The notes beneath the pieces were generated by a model, which searched no databases, was not told the origin of the DNA, and saw only the letters and a list, made by a program, of their open reading frames with translations. From a virus (lineage: Duplodnaviria > Caudoviricetes), in the IMG/VR virus record IMGVR_UViG_3300022723_000184, positions 96,001 to 160,000 of that record: DNA of 64,000 nt, one strand, 5' to 3'. Shown here one piece after another: positions 26,229 to 56,247 of the stretch. Positions within the stretch are counted from its first letter, which is position 1. Every line of letters starts with the position of its first letter. Made by a program: the position numbers and the translations under genes.

Positions 26229-26588
26229 ATGAAAACTGGTCCGCAGCTAGTCATCAACCACATGATCTTCTTCGACATGATCGGAGACCCCGCCTTCTAC
26301 TCGAAGGTGCCGGCCTTCTTCTTCATGCGGGACCAGGGTCTGGCCATCCACAAGAAGATCACCGACGCGGTCCTGGAGAAGGCAGGGTGCCGGGGCTGCA
26401 CGAACATGCGCCAGCAGGTCTGGCCGATCTTCCAGGTCTTCGCTCAGCAGGCCTTCCTGCTTGGCCAGGAGAATCCGGAAGCTCTAAAGCCTTTGGGGGA
26501 TTACATTGCAGGGAAGAAGGGCTACCGACCTACAGAAATACTGCTGTATTTCAGATATCAAGGAATAACGCATAAACTTGTAATATGA
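26229..26588 (+). CDS. Hypothetical CxxC protein (paralog of 27723-28037)
   Basis: GCRGC motif; LVI N-terminus; C-terminal beta hairpin like 27723-28037. Confidence 0.55.
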   Translation: MKTGPQLVINHMIFFDMIGDPAFYSKVPAFFFMRDQGLAIHKKITDAVLEKAGCRGCTNMRQQVWPIFQVFAQQAFLLGQENPEALKPLGDYIAGKKGYRPTEILLYFRYQGITHKLVI

Positions 26589-27244
26589 AAACTACAACGA
26601 AACCAAAACACGGAAGATTTAACGACCTAGAAGGTCGCAAATTTTCTAGATGGGCCGTAGTAGGTTATGCAGGCAGGAAACTTACCGGGAAACAGATGAA
26701 GACTTTCTGGTGGTGCCGTTGCTCTTGCGGTACCACTCGGCAGGTGGAGGCGCAATCTCTGAGTTCCGACGGATCTAAGTCTTGCGGATGTTACGAACGC
26801 GAGGTTGCGGGCGAGCACAGGCGAGTACACGGCGGCACAGGAACAGTAGAGTACACAACCTGGAAAAGGCTTCGCAGCAGATGCAACAATCCAAAATCGC
26901 CTGACTGGAACAATTACGGGGGAAGAGGAATAAGGGTATGTGCCGAGTGGGACGCTATTGAAACCGGATTCTCCAAGTTCTTGCTCGATATGGGTCCCAG
27001 GCCAGGCGACTATTATTCCGTAGAGCGCAAGGACAACGACGGACCGTATAGCGCGGAAAACTGCGTATGGGCGACAAACTACGAACAGAGCCGAAACAGG
27101 CGAACTAACCACATGTTTACCTGGGAAGGTGAAACTCTGTGTCTGAAAGACTGGGCAAATCGTTTCAACATTAAATACGACAAGTTGCGTCGCAGGTTGT
27201 TAAAATACGGATGGCCTTTTTACCGGGCAATCACGACAGCGTAG
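26585..27244 (+). CDS. HNH homing endonuclease
   Basis: DLEGRKFSRWAV..WWCRCSCG..KSCGC; YGGRGIRVC.EW; SVERKDNDGPYSAENCVWA; low GC. Confidence 0.9.
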   Translation: MKTTTKPKHGRFNDLEGRKFSRWAVVGYAGRKLTGKQMKTFWWCRCSCGTTRQVEAQSLSSDGSKSCGCYEREVAGEHRRVHGGTGTVEYTTWKRLRSRCNNPKSPDWNNYGGRGIRVCAEWDAIETGFSKFLLDMGPRPGDYYSVERKDNDGPYSAENCVWATNYEQSRNRRTNHMFTWEGETLCLKDWANRFNIKYDKLRRRLLKYGWPFYRAITTA

Positions 27245-27722: not shown

Positions 27723-28037
27723 ATGGCCACAGCAGCACACAAGCTGGTCGTGATCCAGGACAACACCCTGAAGAACATGGCCAAGCAAACGCGGTTCACC
27801 AAGGAGTTCCCGTTCCTTCAGTCGCTCAACCGACTGAACCAGGGCGCCCCGAAGCGAGGTTGCGGCGGGTGCCGATCGAGCAACAACCGGGTGTCCGAGG
27901 TATTCGCTGCGGCAAAGCGTGCGCTGGCCTCGCTGCCGGCCTCGAAGAAGCGGGTGCTCAAGGAGCTGCTTGGGGCTAAGAAGGTGCGGGTTACCTACCG
28001 TCAAGCAGGCGGGAAGACGGTCGAACTGACCTTTTAA
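27723..28037 (+). CDS. Hypothetical CxxC protein (paralog of 26229-26588)
   Basis: RBS AGGAG; GCGGC motif. Confidence 0.6.
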   Translation: MATAAHKLVVIQDNTLKNMAKQTRFTKEFPFLQSLNRLNQGAPKRGCGGCRSSNNRVSEVFAAAKRALASLPASKKRVLKELLGAKKVRVTYRQAGGKTVELTF

Positions 28038-28138
28038 AGTCACGCCTTTTGAACCGGTATGCCGGCATGTTGACACCAGTACGGCTACCTAAATAAACGT
28101 GTTTTTTGCGTCAAAATACATGCAGGCAAATTAGCCCG

Positions 28139-28174
28139 GTCTCATCTTCTAAACCGATGAGCAGGTATTAAGAT
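28139..28174 (-). CRISPR. Solitary CRISPR repeat C with leader end and -10 box
   Basis: 35/36 identical to the array repeat; preceded on - strand by TATAAT-ACCGAGG, like the array leader TATAAT-GCCGCGG. Confidence 0.92.
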
Positions 28175-28196
28175 CCTCGGTATTATAGCCGAACCG

Positions 28197-28227
28197 CACC
28201 CGGCACATCGCCGGGTGTTTTTCTTTT
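28197..28227 (+). terminator. Rho-independent terminator ending the structural operon
   Basis: CACCCGGC-ACATC-GCCGGGTG followed by TTTTTCTTTT. Confidence 0.8.
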
Positions 28228-28328
28228 CACCCCACCCCTCGTCCCGGTAGGCGTCCTGCTTGCCGGGGCTTTCGTCGCGGGCCTGTTGTCCGCGACTACT
28301 ACCACCTCCTCCAGAAGGGAAAATTGTC

Positions 28329-28648: not shown

Positions 28649-29113
28649 ATGTTCAAATTCGCACCGTTCCTGCTACTCGTCGTCTGTTCGGCGACACTGG
28701 CCGACCAGTCTGCCGACGAGTCACAGATCAACTGGAATCTGGTCTTCAAGTGCCTTCACATGAAGGAGGCCAGCGGTAAACTGAGCCCCGATCGTGGGGA
28801 CGACGGTAAGGCCCTTGGACCCTACCAGATCCACGAGGTTTACTGGAAGGACGCGCTCAAGGGTGATCCGTCGATCGGCGGGAAGTACGAGGACTGCAGC
28901 GACAAGGCCTACTCCGAGAAGGTGATCAAGGCTTACATGCGACGGTGGCTCGTGGTGAGCCGGGTCGGCAAGGTGATGACCTACGAACTCATTTGCCGGT
29001 CCCACAACGGGGGAGGCCCTAGGGCCTGGCCCAAGCACCCCGGCCACATGCGGTGGCTTCAGGCCTCCCAGGCGTACTGGGAGTCTGCGGTCTTCGATCC
29101 CCTGCGGAAATAG
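28649..29113 (+). CDS. Lysozyme-like (invertebrate-type/destabilase-like) muramidase with signal peptide
   Basis: EASG..GDDGKALGPYQIHEVYWKDA..HNGG motifs; hydrophobic N-terminus ending ATLA. Confidence 0.65.
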   Translation: MFKFAPFLLLVVCSATLADQSADESQINWNLVFKCLHMKEASGKLSPDRGDDGKALGPYQIHEVYWKDALKGDPSIGGKYEDCSDKAYSEKVIKAYMRRWLVVSRVGKVMTYELICRSHNGGGPRAWPKHPGHMRWLQASQAYWESAVFDPLRK

Positions 29114-29149
29114 ACCGAAAATCACAGGTCCCGATTGACCTTGATTGAC

Positions 29150-29185
29150 GACGCAATACCGGCTCATCAGCCGGGAAAACTAGGA
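29150..29185 (+). repeat. Possible decayed solitary repeat D
   Basis: GACGCAATACCGGCTCATCAG.. 22/36 identical to the repeat; 5' half kept, 3' stem arm lost. Confidence 0.4.
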
Positions 29186-29194
29186 GAAGCTATC

Positions 29195-29929
29195 ATGAAG
29201 ACTCTGATCATCGCTATCGCTGCCGTGCTGCTCGTGTGTCCGGCGTTCGGGCAGGAGCAGGAGACGAAACTTCAATCACTCGGCGCTCGTCGGGCCATGG
29301 TCCGCTACAAGGCCAAGGTCGCGAACGCAGAGCGCCTGTACAAGGCCGCACTGTTGCGAGCGGCGAAAGACCTGAAAGAAGAACTTCAAGCCGACCTCAT
29401 CAAGGTTACGAAGACCGGCAACCTGGAGTCCGCCAACCAGGTGAAGGCCGAGCTGGATCGCATTCAGGCGGAAATCGAAAAGATGACCAACCCTGACGCT
29501 AAGCCGAGCAATACGCCCAGCGACTCCGTTGAAATCACTGAGGGCGATCCGAATGTCAAAGTCGGGAAACTCAAGCCCACTCGCGACTGGTGGACGCTCG
29601 CCCAACTCAAAGCAGGTGACAAAGTTTACTTCCGGGCGGCTGGAACATGGGAGATCTTTGGCGTCGGCACCTGCGGGCCTGACGGCGGCCGTGGAAGCAA
29701 GGGCGACAAGAACGACCCGCTCCCCGGCGCTCCAGTGGGCGCAATTCTCGGCAGGCTTCCTGGCTCCACCGACGAGAAGCGGGCTACTGGCTTTGTGATT
29801 GGGCGCAGCGCCGTATTCACTGCCAAGGAGGATGGCGCGTTCCAGCTTCGCGTCAACAAGACGAGCGGCTACATCTACAAGTGCGATGGCGAACTGGCCT
29901 ACAAAGTCAAGGTCGTTCCAGCCAACTGA
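29195..29929 (+). CDS. Secreted protein: signal peptide, coiled coil, C-terminal PA-IL/LecA-like lectin fold
   Basis: KAGDKVYFRAAGTW..CGPDG..PLPGAPVGAILG..FVIG..GAFQLRVN pattern. Confidence 0.6.
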   Translation: MKTLIIAIAAVLLVCPAFGQEQETKLQSLGARRAMVRYKAKVANAERLYKAALLRAAKDLKEELQADLIKVTKTGNLESANQVKAELDRIQAEIEKMTNPDAKPSNTPSDSVEITEGDPNVKVGKLKPTRDWWTLAQLKAGDKVYFRAAGTWEIFGVGTCGPDGGRGSKGDKNDPLPGAPVGAILGRLPGSTDEKRATGFVIGRSAVFTAKEDGAFQLRVNKTSGYIYKCDGELAYKVKVVPAN

Positions 29930-29946: not shown

Positions 29947-29979
29947 AAAATACCCGCATATCGGCTTAAAAGATATGAC
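29944..29979 (+). repeat. Degenerate solitary CRISPR repeat E (sense, upstream of RBS)
   Basis: AAATACCCG-CATATC-GGCTTAAAA-GATATG-AC; 25/36 identical; two compensatory pairs. Confidence 0.85.
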
Positions 29980-29995
29980 GAAAGGGAGGCACACG

Positions 29996-30190
29996 ATGCT
30001 GTGCGCTACCGAAGGCAAGGCGTGCGTCCTCGTCGGATTCATCGCCACACTCGCAGGGATCATCGTGGCAGCGTACACCACGCCGCTAACCGGGATCGCC
30101 TGGGGCATGGTTGCTCTGCTGGGCCTGTTGGCCTGGGTGAACACCAAGCTCGAACCCGCGGACCGCGATGGTCCCGGGAAACGAAACTAA
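29996..30190 (+). CDS. Small two-TM membrane protein
   Basis: RBS GGGAGG; two hydrophobic segments; 64 aa. Confidence 0.6.
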   Translation: MLCATEGKACVLVGFIATLAGIIVAAYTTPLTGIAWGMVALLGLLAWVNTKLEPADRDGPGKRN

Positions 30191-39160: not shown

Positions 39161-40048
39161 TTGGCCAAACGCAAGTTCACGATGCACGAGCAGATGATCT
39201 TCGACGTAATCCGCAAACAGGCGGGCACGCTGTCGAAGGCGGCGTTGGAAGGCGTGATGAACGCCGTCGACGCCAACGCCTCCGAGATCAAGATCACGCT
39301 CGACGAGGGCAGGATGACCCTGTCCGACGACGGTAAGGGGTTCCGGTCCAAGAAGGAGATCGAAGACTACTTCGAGACCTTCGGCCGACCTCACACAGAG
39401 CAAGAGCAGAAGGTCTTCGGCAAGTTCCGTATGGGTCGCGGGCAGATGTTCGCGTTCGGCAGGAACCTGTGGGAGACCGGACGATTCCGGATGGACGTCG
39501 ACGTCAAGGACAAGGGCCTGGATTACGACCTGAAGGAGCTGTCCGAGAAGGAGCGGGCGCCCGGTTGCTCGATCACGATCGAGCTGTACGACCAGTTGCT
39601 GCCGAGTGACGTCGACAAGACGGTCAGGGACCTGGAGCTGTGGTGCAAGTGGGCGCCGCTCCGTGTGGTGCTCAATGACCGGGAGATCAGTTCGGATCCC
39701 GCTGCCCAGGAGTGGCAGTACGAGACGGACGAGGCCTACGTCAGTCTGACGGGTGTCGGCGGTCTGACGATCTACAACCAGGGCGTGTTCGTCATGGACA
39801 TTCCGGCCTACCGGTACGGGACGGGCGGCGAGGTCGTGACCAAGATGGGTCAGGATCTTGACGTCAACTTCGCCCGCAACGACATCCTGGCTTCGTGCCC
39901 GATCTGGAAGAAGGTCTCGCCCTTCATCGACCAGCGGGCCACGGAGAAGAACACCAAGAAGCGGGCCCTGGACGACGGCGCCCGCCAGAGGCTGGCCCAC
40001 CAGTTGAAGGCCGGCGAAGAGATCGAGTCTCATCTTCTAAACCGATGA
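39161..40048 (+). pseudogene. GHKL (HSP90/MORC/rIIA-like) ATPase, truncated by a CRISPR repeat
   Basis: EGVMNAVDA, DDGKG, GKFRMGRG motifs; last 7 codons come from the inverted repeat; likely C-terminal remnant at 40077-40130. Confidence 0.7.
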
Positions 40049-40062
40049 GCAGGTATTAAGAT
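40027..40062 (-). CRISPR. Solitary CRISPR repeat G with leader end and -10 box (TACAAT, 40070-40075)
   Basis: 35/36 identical to the array repeat; 46 nt identical to copy C. Confidence 0.92.
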
Positions 40063-40139
40063 CCTCGGTATTGTAGTCTAGCAAGAAGGACTTCGTGTTC
40101 GACTGGATCAAGAACATCATGCTCATTTAGGAGGTTGTT

Positions 40140-53595: not shown

Positions 53596-55365
53596 ATGGG
53601 ATTCAATAAGGACCCAGAGGCCCGCTGTGTGGTTTACCAGTACGGCGGCAAACATCCGACGGAAAACGAAGACGAAGCGATCAACCAGCTCGCCAAGGCG
53701 AACCGTTTTCGGAACCGGCTCGTTGAGTTGGAGCTACAACGACGTGAAGAATACCACGCTGCGTTCTCGGGTTACGGAGACCTGGCGGAGCCGTCAAATC
53801 AGCTTGAGACGCTCAACGAGCAGCTGACCGCTGCGGTGGCAGAACTTAAGGCGTGGAGACAATTGAACGGCACTCGAAGTCAACACCCGACGCTAACCCC
53901 GCAGATCGTTTCGCTACGGGCTCAGGCTCGCCAGCTACGGACACAGATCAAGTCGATCAAGGAAGCGGCCAAAGGCGATCCTACGGTGCAGGCGGCAATC
54001 GAAAAAGCAAACCAGCAGCACCGAGATCAGACCAAAGCTGCGTACGGCGCTGTAAGAGAATCGAACCCGGAGGCCGAGGACGCCAGAGACCGGCATGGGT
54101 TGTTCTGGGGAACGGCCCTCCTAGTTCAAAGGGCAGCGACACAGTTCCAGAAGGGCCCTCCCCCGAGGTACAAACGTTTCGACGGGACGGGAACTATCGG
54201 CGTGCAGCTGCAGAACGGGATGTCTGTGGAGGATCTGTTCACTCCGGGCGGCAGCGTCTGGATTGACCCCGTTCCTCCGGAGGCCTGGGACCCGCAGACG
54301 CCGAGAGGTCAAAGGCGAAAACTCGCAAGAACGATGCTACACATGCGGATCGGCGGGAAGCCGCAGGCCTGGGTGATTCTAAAGCTACCTGTCACCGTGC
54401 ACAGACCGCTGCCTGCAGGAAAACTTATCAAGTGGGTCACGGTCACTCGGCGTAAGTACGGTTCACAGGCGCGGTGGTATGTAAACGTCACGACGGATAT
54501 CAGGTCTGGTGGCACGCTTCACGATGATGTTGCGGCTGCCGGATTTGTGGGTGTCGACCTGGGTTTCAGGTTGTTCAAGCCCGCAGAAAGCAGCTCAGGC
54601 AAGCGATCGCTCCGAGTGGCTGTATGGGCCGGAGATGACGGGGAGACAGGCGAACTTCGCCTCGACGCGAGGTTTATGTCCTACATCTCAAAGGCCGACG
54701 GTTTGAGGTCGATCCGGGACAAGCGGCTTGATCAGATCAGAGCGGCGCTGCTTCCGTTGTGTGACGAGGCGGGTACGCCGGAGTGGTGGAAAGACGACAC
54801 TCAACACATGGCCAAATGGAGGTCTCCTCGAAAGCTGTATCACTTGCTCCACAAGTGGAAAGACAACAGGTGGGATGGCGACAAAACGCTGTTCGATCTG
54901 TTGGTTAAGTGGGTAGTTCAGGACCGTCACCTCCACGTGTGGGAAGCCAACAATCGCCGAAAAGTAGCGGCTCGTCGCCTGGACATGTACCGGAACCTGG
55001 CGGCCTCTTTGAGGCGCAAGTACGCGGTTATCGGGATCGAAGACATCGATTGGCGGATCTGGAGCAAGTTGGCCCTGCCCGAAGAAGAGGAGACCAAGTC
55101 AAAGAAGTTCCGTGTTCAAAAGAAACATGCGGCGGTCGGTCTGCTTGCAGAGACGCTGTCGAATTGCGGGGCACAGGTTGTACGTTTGGATCCCGCTTAC
55201 ACGACGAAGCGGTGCAACGCCTGCGGCAAGATCACCGAATTTGACGCTGACCGGCACCTGCGACATACGTGCGAACATTGCCATGCGGAGTGGGACCAAG
55301 ACTACAATGCGGCAAAGAACCTGCAAGACATGGCGAGCGGCAACGCCGTAACGCAAACCGCGTAG
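53596..55365 (+). CDS. cas12m: Type V-M CRISPR effector Cas12m-like (589 aa)
   Basis: LFWGT, RYKRFDGTGTIGVQLQ, VHRPLP, KWRSPRKL, EANNRRK motifs as in Cas12m; RuvC D321/E482/D569; CNAC..CEHC zinc finger; adjacent array. Confidence 0.88.
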   Translation: MGFNKDPEARCVVYQYGGKHPTENEDEAINQLAKANRFRNRLVELELQRREEYHAAFSGYGDLAEPSNQLETLNEQLTAAVAELKAWRQLNGTRSQHPTLTPQIVSLRAQARQLRTQIKSIKEAAKGDPTVQAAIEKANQQHRDQTKAAYGAVRESNPEAEDARDRHGLFWGTALLVQRAATQFQKGPPPRYKRFDGTGTIGVQLQNGMSVEDLFTPGGSVWIDPVPPEAWDPQTPRGQRRKLARTMLHMRIGGKPQAWVILKLPVTVHRPLPAGKLIKWVTVTRRKYGSQARWYVNVTTDIRSGGTLHDDVAAAGFVGVDLGFRLFKPAESSSGKRSLRVAVWAGDDGETGELRLDARFMSYISKADGLRSIRDKRLDQIRAALLPLCDEAGTPEWWKDDTQHMAKWRSPRKLYHLLHKWKDNRWDGDKTLFDLLVKWVVQDRHLHVWEANNRRKVAARRLDMYRNLAASLRRKYAVIGIEDIDWRIWSKLALPEEEETKSKKFRVQKKHAAVGLLAETLSNCGAQVVRLDPAYTTKRCNACGKITEFDADRHLRHTCEHCHAEWDQDYNAAKNLQDMASGNAVTQTA

Positions 55366-55439: not shown

Positions 55440-55502
55440 CGATCGAACCGCTCGAAAACGGCCTGATAACCATGTACGCACGTGTAGGTTATAATGCCGC
55501 GG
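55440..55502 (+). promoter_or_regulatory. CRISPR leader with -10 box TATAAT (55490-55495)
   Basis: TATAAT 7 nt before repeat 1; same end motif at solitary repeats C and G. Confidence 0.7.
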
Positions 55503-56247
55503 ATCGTAATACCTGCTCATCGGTTTAGAAGATGAGACGCGGCATTGATTGCCTTCTTGAGTTGCTGCTCCAACATCGTAATACCTGCTCATCGGTTTAG
55601 AAGATGAGACATCGCCGCATCGCTGGAAGCGGGCGTGGCGTCGGCGGATCGTAATACCTGCTCATCGGTTTAGAAGATGAGACCTTTCTCTGTGTCCGAG
55701 ATAACGGGGTCACTAATGTCATCGTAATACCTGCTCATCGGTTTGGAAGATGAGACAAGCATCCGAGCAGCCGCTACAAGGACAAGATCGGCATCGTAAT
55801 ACCTGCTCATCGGTTTAGAAGATGAGACTAGTCGGGCAATTGCTCGAACGGCACAGAGATATCGTCATCGTAATACCTGCTCATCGGTTTAGAAGATGAG
55901 ACGCTTACCGGTGGCCGAGGCCAAGGCGCGATGGAGAACATCGTAATACCTGCTCATCGGTTTAGAAGATGAGACACGGTGGATCCGGTCGAGCGGCTGA
56001 TCCTTCACATCATCGTAATACCTGCTCATCGGTTTAGAAGATGAGACCCGGTGATCGACGCGGTCCTCGAGAACGCCGAGGACATCGTAATACCTGCTCA
56101 TCGGTTTAGAAGATGAGACAAGTGGATCAGGTTCTTCTCATCGTAATACCTGCTCATTGGTTTAGAAGATGAGACGCGGACTGCCCCGAGATGCGGCGCC
56201 GGCTGTGGGTAATCGTAATACCTGCTCATCGGTTTGGAAGATGAGAC
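55503..56247 (+). CRISPR. CRISPR array: 11 x 36-nt repeats ATCGTAATACCTGCTCATCGGTTTAGAAGATGAGAC, 10 spacers
   Basis: Repeats start at 55503, 55575, 55648, 55721, 55793, 55867, 55940, 56012, 56084, 56140, 56212; spacers 36-38 nt except spacer 9 (20 nt); 3' hairpin CTCATC/GATGAG + AC. Confidence 0.99.

Follow-up and report, generated by a model that had tools for sequence, protein, structure and literature searches.

A solitary Cas12m repeat antisense in a phage promoter leader as a candidate one-guide crRNA gene

Introduction

What could a single CRISPR repeat do when it stands behind a predicted promoter of its own, inside another promoter's leader, in a phage that also encodes the matching effector? 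Known solitary repeats of viruses serve as decoys for host Cas proteins, and known lone repeats of cells regulate cas and defence genes. The phage described here owns an effector of the binding type and has a repeat with a predicted promoter inside the leader of one of its own conserved, lineage-specific promoters, 5' of a lysozyme-containing operon.

Cas12m proteins bind DNA in a PAM-dependent manner without cleaving it and thereby silence transcription; they process their own crRNA to ~33 nt of repeat and ~17 nt of guide, and recognize PAMs of the YTN, YTTS or TTV type (PMC11013384, PMC10442227, bioRxiv 10.64898/2026.03.26.714355). According to the same papers, PmCas12m lost its activity when just one mismatch lay within 12 nt of the PAM. 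Phage-encoded Cas12m has been described in one report, without solitary repeats (bioRxiv 10.64898/2026.09.14.751636). Viral solitary repeat units are typically intergenic, lie right behind a promoter, act as anti-CRISPR RNAs and are not linked to cas genes (PMC10651486), and cells have crRNA-like RNAs that act as promoter repressors (bioRxiv 10.1101/2023.03.03.530964, 10.1101/2024.12.27.630466).

We analysed a 64,000-nt stretch of DNA, here called the window, which comprises bases 96001-160000 of a 201,946-bp virus record (a ~202-kb phage). Coordinates are those of the window unless the genome or a contig is named.

Results

Anatomy of cassette C

A sequence-only reading of the window had described a solitary leader-repeat cassette on the - strand, composed of TATAAT-ACCGAGG and a repeat matching at 35/36 positions. 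This description held: the cassette, designated C, lies at 28187..28139, with TATAAT at 28187..28182, ACCGAGG at 28181..28175 and a 36-nt repeat at 28174..28139 (Table 1). The repeat agrees at 35/36 positions with the consensus of an 11-copy array, and at 36/36 with a second solitary copy at 40062..40027, which belongs to cassette B. At ≤3 mismatches the window contains 13 repeat matches (the 11 array copies, C and B), against 0 expected from 100 shuffles. Folding of the C repeat yields the stem CTCATC/GATGAG.

Beyond the repeat, the - strand reads CGGGCTAATTTGCC..., descending from 28138. This segment is the candidate guide, numbered so that position 1 is 28138 and position 17 is 28122; positions 22-27 lie over the -10-like hexamer of a promoter, PC, described below. 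On the + strand, the small hairpin at 28123..28138 stands at the 5' end of the PC leader; on the - strand, together with the U-rich run behind it, it forms a weak terminator-like crRNA end that falls inside the guide. The repeat at C is single, and a second, bounding repeat is absent. By its anatomy, C thus reads as a complete one-guide crRNA gene with a -10 box at the spacing used by the array, a handle, a guide and a weak end. It appears to be one copy of a ~52-nt module, consisting of a bare -10 box and one Cas12m repeat, that also heads the array.

Table 1 Features of cassette C, promoter PC and the Cas12m locus (window coordinates)
Feature	Position	Strand	Basis
Upstream gene, 104 aa, no known family	27723..28037	+	SD and ATG at 27723; translation
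PC -35-like hexamer CTAAAT	28089..28094 (invariant block CTAAATA 28089-28095)	+	9/9 aligned sites
PC -10-like hexamer CAAAAT, 17 bp after the -35-like hexamer	28112..28117	+	CAnAAT in 9/9 sites
Candidate guide of C, native PC sequence in reverse	28109..28138	-	28/30 to PT, 26/30 to L011
Small hairpin, 3-5-bp stem, 6-nt loop	28123..28138	both	also at PT and L011
Solitary 36-nt Cas12m repeat of C, intact stem CTCATC/GATGAG	28139..28174	-	repeat search and folding
Putative minimal promoter of C, TATAAT and 7-nt ACCGAGG	28175..28187	-	predicted promoter activity
Intrinsic terminator, 9-bp stem with 7 GC pairs, then TTTTTCTTTT	28196..28228 (stem-loop 28196-28218)	+	
First gene 3' of PC, 94 aa	28329..28613	+	translation
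Destabilase/lysozyme-like gene, PC operon	28649-29113		Pfam E=3.7e-8
ORF, PC operon	29135-29929		
Small hydrophobic-protein ORF, PC operon	29975-30190		
Sister cassette B, TACAAT-ACCGAGG leader, repeat identical to C	40027..40075	-	repeat search
cas12m, 589 aa, directly 5' of the array	53596..55365	+	PDB matches, TNB domain, motif positions
Type V-M array, TATAAT leader and 11 repeats	55490..56247 (repeats 55503-56247)	+	repeat search

The phage encodes a Cas12m effector with a cognate array

C is cognate to a Cas12m whose gene lies in the same window. The 589-aa ORF matches Cas12m (23vw_A, E=5.9e-67) and Cas12m2 (8hhl_A, E=1.5e-26) in the PDB, carries the Pfam Cas12f1-like TNB domain and retains the RuvC-like residues D321, E482 and D569 by motif position. 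This gene and an array with the same repeat sit 25 kb from C in one phage. The array leader, TATAAT-GCCGCGG at 55490-55502, places the -10 box 7 nt from the repeat, as in C. No array spacer had a protospacer in INPHARED phages or in the relatives G001-G003, hence no PAM could be derived. One array unit (56084-56175) has a spacer of only 20 nt (56120-56139), compared with 36-37 nt elsewhere.

Three relatives had no match to cas12m and no copy of the repeat found in C, a result that ties the cassettes to the effector. An AT-rich 87-kb metagenomic contig (L085 10001-12614) encodes a 46% identical Cas12m next to an array of 10 repeats that share the GCTCATC...G(A/G)TGAGAC architecture, and no solitary repeat copy was found within 10 kb on either side of that locus. 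Single-protein searches for the locus, with the upstream gene, gene X and Cas12m, returned no close viral relatives.

C lies in the leader of a predicted lineage-specific promoter

Homologues of the 104-aa gene upstream of C are few (P0002-P0005 at 42-74% identity, also L073-L075) and mark the orthologous site in relatives. In the distant relatives G001 (235 kb) and G002 (219 kb), which an alignment of the 104-aa protein retrieved, a two-hexamer motif follows the homologue of this gene and precedes the next gene. We aligned nine such sites from four phages. In all nine, CTAAATA is invariant, the 17-bp gap is fixed and the second element is CAnAATA, and each site lies 45-230 nt 5' of an RBS and ATG, several of them directly after a terminator. 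A pattern search for CTAAAT-N17-CAnAATA gave two copies in this genome, four in G002, all on one strand, and two in G001 (window 28089-28118; genome 189106-189135, which is L009 3106-3135; L076-L081), and the reversed-pattern control gave 0 matches. On the gene strand, the full motif occurs only twice in the genome, at 28089 (PC) and at genome 189106 (PT), and of the three copies of CTAAATAA in the 202 kb, PC and PT account for the two on the + strand. In the viral collection searched, with the phage's own record left out, no record other than G002 contained the exact spaced motif.

A consensus sigma-70 promoter at PC was rejected, as a generic sigma-70 scan calls none there. We read the motif as a lineage-specific two-hexamer promoter, which would place the start of PC near 28124. 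If CTAAATAA were instead a -10 box of the T4-late type, the guide would still be early transcribed leader. An ORF with a Sigma70_r4 domain (genome 21869-21997, L084) scores 25 bits, just over the cut-off; it might be a phage sigma-like factor that reads the unusual -35 element.

PC, PT and L011 share one layout, in which the promoter is followed by a small hairpin with a 3-5-bp stem, a strong intrinsic terminator and the gene, and this order suggests control by read-through or antitermination. At PC, the terminator is the only terminator-like site on the + strand after the stop codon at 28037, and it appears both to close the upstream operon and to serve as the PC leader terminator. Since no + strand terminator intervenes between 28037 and 28196, + strand transcripts would carry a full anti-repeat ahead of the terminator, as the sequence-only reading had proposed. 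Its assignment of the site to the 3' UTR of the upstream operon was correct as far as it went; the same DNA is also the predicted transcribed leader of PC. The PC operon consists of four genes: the 94-aa gene, the Destabilase/lysozyme-like gene, the ORF at 29135-29929 and the small hydrophobic-protein ORF at 29975-30190. Further upstream, an HNH endonuclease gene (26585-27244; PHROG 374, E=3.5e-57) has a GC3 of 0.55, far below its neighbours, and is probably a free-standing homing endonuclease.

An empty site in a relative accounts for the guide

L011, a short JGI contig whose upstream gene is 72% identical in amino acid sequence, spans the whole intergenic region. It reads CCTAAATAA, 11 nt, GCGTCAAAATACATGTAGGCAATTTAGCC, 3 nt, the terminator hairpin, and then an RBS and the start of a homologue of the downstream gene. 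In the alignment (A2), the phage has 61 nt, which hold the cassette, where L011 has 3 nt. Because the L011 site is empty, C looks like an insertion into the PC leader and the guide looks older than the cassette. The empty site retains the guide sequence, which is therefore flank-derived, and the possibility that the guide is an acquired or captured spacer was rejected, as the same promoter DNA is present in L011 without a cassette. The AT-rich guide had been called intergenic-looking and a possible match to a promoter elsewhere, and it proves to be PC sequence itself. It is native PC DNA from the -10 region to about +15 of the predicted transcript; given a start near 28124, guide positions 1-17 (28138..28122) correspond to about +1 to +15.

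C sits ~15 nt 3' of the predicted start of PC, in antisense orientation and 5' of the leader terminator, and its insertion left both promoter hexamers and the terminator intact. GGCTA is found at both junctions of C, where the leader sequence GGCTATAAT resembles the native GGCTAA(A/T)TT. Ahead of the block shared by the cassettes stand TTC (at C) and CTA (at B); both fit YTN and might represent a retained PAM, but the array leader has GTA with the T in the same place, so this T may belong to the promoter. In the closest relative (L010 1040-1071, 74% amino acid identity in the upstream gene), the contig breaks off 3 nt beyond the ATG of the promoter, close to the place that the cassette occupies in this phage. 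A repeat may have interrupted the assembly there, or the agreement may be coincidental.

Near-copies of the guide lie at promoters and lack a known PAM

The 30-nt guide (28138..28109) has no second match in the window at ≤3 mismatches, as had been stated. The expectation that it might have a target elsewhere, in the rest of the genome or in rival phages, was borne out as regards near-copies. PT (genome 189126-189155, - strand; L009 3126-3155) matches at 28/30 positions, with mismatches at guide positions 2 and 9; it lies 65 kb from PC, is the sole other copy of this promoter in the genome and is the only near-match in the genome to any solitary guide or array spacer. L011 matches at 26/30 positions, with mismatches at positions 1, 2, 9 and 16. 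The search of the full genome that had been suggested thus returned a match, but the 5'-TTN PAM expected with it was absent: the flank at the PAM position is GAG at PT and GTG at L011, and at the phage's own locus it is the GAC with which the repeat ends. A known Cas12m PAM (YTN, YTTS, TTV) is missing from all three promoter copies with a readable flank, although these PAMs are those of other orthologues and maybe not that of this one. The idea that the PT match shows canonical targeting was rejected. Its mismatches at positions 2 and 9 fall in the seed, inside the stretch in which one mismatch sufficed to inactivate PmCas12m, and L011 also has seed mismatches.

Conservation of the promoter is highest over guide positions 17-30, past the usual 17-20-nt guide, and no relative has a perfect match to the guide. 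Exact and degenerate scans of the viral contig collection for the guide or promoter core and for the repeat found nothing outside G002. A metagenome scan gave 60 matches, all of them chance matches and none with flanking CTAAATAA or leader sequence, and a genome contig scan gave one chance match, in a Lachnospiraceae MAG. The genes 3' of PT belong to no recognisable family, and for the PT downstream gene only one homologue was found.

C belongs to a dispersed repeat family

Searches at ≤7 mismatches or with an HMM recovered eight well-preserved solitary repeats genome-wide, besides weaker mimics. Five older, diverged copies have an intact stem and a sixth has one stem change. The four of these six that lie on the - strand all retain a -10 box (TATACT or TACACT) in the same place, and stem, 3' end and fixed-distance -10 are kept in the older members despite 6-7 substitutions elsewhere. 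B and the further - strand cassettes, at genome 5222, 7620, 46773 and 53583, are located at the 3' ends of + strand reading frames, which they adjoin or overlap, and not at promoters. The guide of B covers the 3' end of a GHKL-ATPase ORF in antisense orientation, and B goes along with the truncation of a gene.

A sense-strand mimic of the repeat (29950-29998) lies directly before the RBS and ATG of the small hydrophobic-protein ORF. It has two compensatory stem changes, CATATC/GATATG, and the RBS occupies its guide position; the palindrome AAAAGTACTTTT precedes it. A related motif, AAAGT(A/G)CTTTT, precedes the -10 of the older antisense cassettes at genome 46773 and 53583. Genome-wide, many TATAAT, TATACT and TACAAT boxes without a -35 element are intergenic, just 5' of genes or structured elements. 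These -10-only boxes suggest a second promoter class, used by the array and the cassettes.

Discussion

A proposed one-guide crRNA gene for the phage Cas12m

We propose, tentatively and with a probability of roughly 0.4, that C is a one-guide crRNA gene for the phage Cas12m, aimed at uninterrupted copies of this promoter. The TATAAT of C would fire at the first bases of the repeat and give an RNA of 50-65 nt, made up of the Cas12m handle and the PC-derived guide and ending at the weak hairpin and U-tract, and Cas12m would load this RNA. Under known rules the complex would be unable to bind its own locus, because the repeat's 3' end, GAC, occupies the position of the PAM; with its own locus exempt, it would be directed at uninterrupted copies. 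Among these, the main candidates would be the orthologous promoters in co-infecting relatives without the insertion; PT is a less probable one. Cas12m bound at about +1 to +17 would prevent transcription of the downstream operon from initiating, in a CRISPRi-like manner, and the face-to-face promoters, whose starts would be ~50 nt apart, would probably also damp PC in cis.

Several features favour this proposal. The Cas12m family binds without cutting, blocks transcription and uses a single short crRNA. C has a repeat identical to that of B and intact, a -10 box at the array's 7-nt distance, a guide that coincides with a promoter and an empty site in L011. Older copies have kept their stem and -10, PT is the only near-match, three relatives showed neither a cas12m match nor the repeat, and a terminator-like end lies within the guide. 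The flanks (GAG, GTG, GAC), none of them a known Cas12m PAM, the seed mismatches at PT and L011, the position of the conserved promoter part outside the usual guide length and the lack of a perfect target among the relatives all argue against it.

An extension of the proposal, which we think distinctly improbable, is that C is a self-guarding and possibly self-spreading guide element, which turns the phage Cas12m on co-infecting relatives whose alleles of a key late promoter are uninterrupted. If it were true, the carrier would be immune, with the cassette at the edge of its own guide sequence, and the lysis operon of relatives would be silenced; were the Cas12m ortholog, with its RuvC-like D-E-D motifs, to cut, the repair provoked would copy the cassette in. 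Such logic would be that of a TnpB omega-RNA or a synthetic gene drive, made from a CRISPR repeat.

Alternative explanations

C might instead act mainly on its neighbour, as a cis-acting antisense switch whose promoter runs head-on into PC with starts ~50 nt apart. The PC -10 at 28112-28117 indeed stands opposite the cassette -10 at 28187..28182 on the other strand, and the RNA would be fully complementary to the first ~50 nt of PC transcripts and to the 3' end of the upstream operon. Conversely, with no + strand terminator before 28196, the + strand anti-repeat, complementary at 35/36 positions to the array repeats, could pair with pre-crRNA. Such a switch would time the lysozyme-containing operon or turn Cas12m guides off late, Cas12m itself only stabilising or processing the antisense RNA. 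It needs neither a PAM nor a perfect external target, and the operon contains, besides the Destabilase/lysozyme-like gene, a hydrophobic-protein gene preceded by the sense-strand repeat mimic. Promoter interference cannot, however, be the common function of the repeat family, because the other - strand cassettes stand at the 3' ends of + strand frames and not at promoters, and the need for a Cas12m handle would be left unexplained. We consider this account possible but doubtful.

It is also conceivable, though in our view unlikely, that C is a neutral scar of illegitimate or microhomology-mediated recombination, which would have placed a copy of the array leader and first repeat in intergenic DNA that tolerates it; the PT match would then reflect promoter paralogy only, and any RNA made would be idle. 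B and C are near-identical and hence recent, and because C is young, its intactness alone shows no selection. The GGCTA at both junctions, with GGCTATAAT resembling GGCTAA(A/T)TT, suggests microhomology, a gene truncation accompanies B, and a canonical target was not found. Neutrality fits poorly with the older copies, which keep the stem, the 3' end and the fixed-distance -10 despite 6-7 substitutions elsewhere, with the two compensatory stem changes (CATATC/GATATG) of the sense-strand copy, and with an insertion that spared both promoter hexamers and the terminator. Sequestration of a host-encoded Cas12m by the solitary repeat RNA, as by RNA anti-CRISPRs, would suit an anatomy that is that of a viral solitary repeat unit, intergenic and right behind a promoter (PMC10651486). 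Such a decoy role is very improbable here: the cognate effector, and a full array built from this repeat, belong to the phage itself, whereas the described units are not associated with cas genes (PMC10651486).

Implications

Three findings are new at this locus: a relative has the empty site, the guide is promoter sequence, and PT matches the guide. Two features add to the known systems: the guide is native DNA that became a guide through the insertion, and the site is a conserved promoter leader with one paralogous copy. If C functions as a crRNA gene, cassette guides can be native sequence made by insertion, and self-targeting or orphan spacers of phages would have to be read differently. 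C also makes it possible to ask with cloned parts (a single effector, a 110-bp cassette and the natural promoter alleles PC and PT) whether phages direct CRISPR interference at promoters, be they their own or those of relatives.

Comparison with known systems

Like the type V-M units of MmCas12m2, GoCas12m and PmCas12m, C has an effector in the same genome and a 36-nt stem-loop repeat, followed by the guide, that needs no tracrRNA; silencing by DNA binding in those systems makes a promoter start site a sensible target. Unlike them, it has one repeat with no downstream repeat, a private -10 promoter and a guide that is native flanking DNA, and a PAM-flanked target was not found. With the viral solitary repeat units, or Racrs, C shares a single CRISPR repeat that is intergenic and directly behind a predicted promoter. 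Racrs, however, mimic host repeats and act as decoys with no link to cas, while this phage owns an effector and an array and has at least 8 repeat copies dispersed over its genome.

The crRNA-like RNAs of cells (CreA/CreR, crlRNAs and standalone repeats near cas genes) likewise combine a lone repeat with a guide complementary to a promoter, and their expected outcome, as would be that of C, is repression without cleavage. Those RNAs are cellular, have their genes in or near a CRISPR-cas locus and show partial pairing with a promoter at another site that has a PAM beside it; the perfect match of C, in contrast, is its own insertion site, and the trans copy PT has no known PAM. In TnpB omega-RNAs of IS200/IS605 elements, from which Cas12 descends, the guide is the DNA flanking the element and recognises the empty site but not the occupied one. 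The guide of C is also derived from flanking DNA, but C has no demonstrable TAM or PAM on the other flank, its scaffold is a CRISPR repeat, and no transposase or defined element ends are known for it. In phage P22, the sar antisense RNA is made from a promoter convergent with Pant; the promoters of C and PC similarly face each other tens of nt apart, with a short antisense RNA predicted over the sense start, although sar is not known to have a protein-binding CRISPR handle. C combines features of phage-encoded Cas12m, viral solitary repeats and cellular crRNA-like RNAs.
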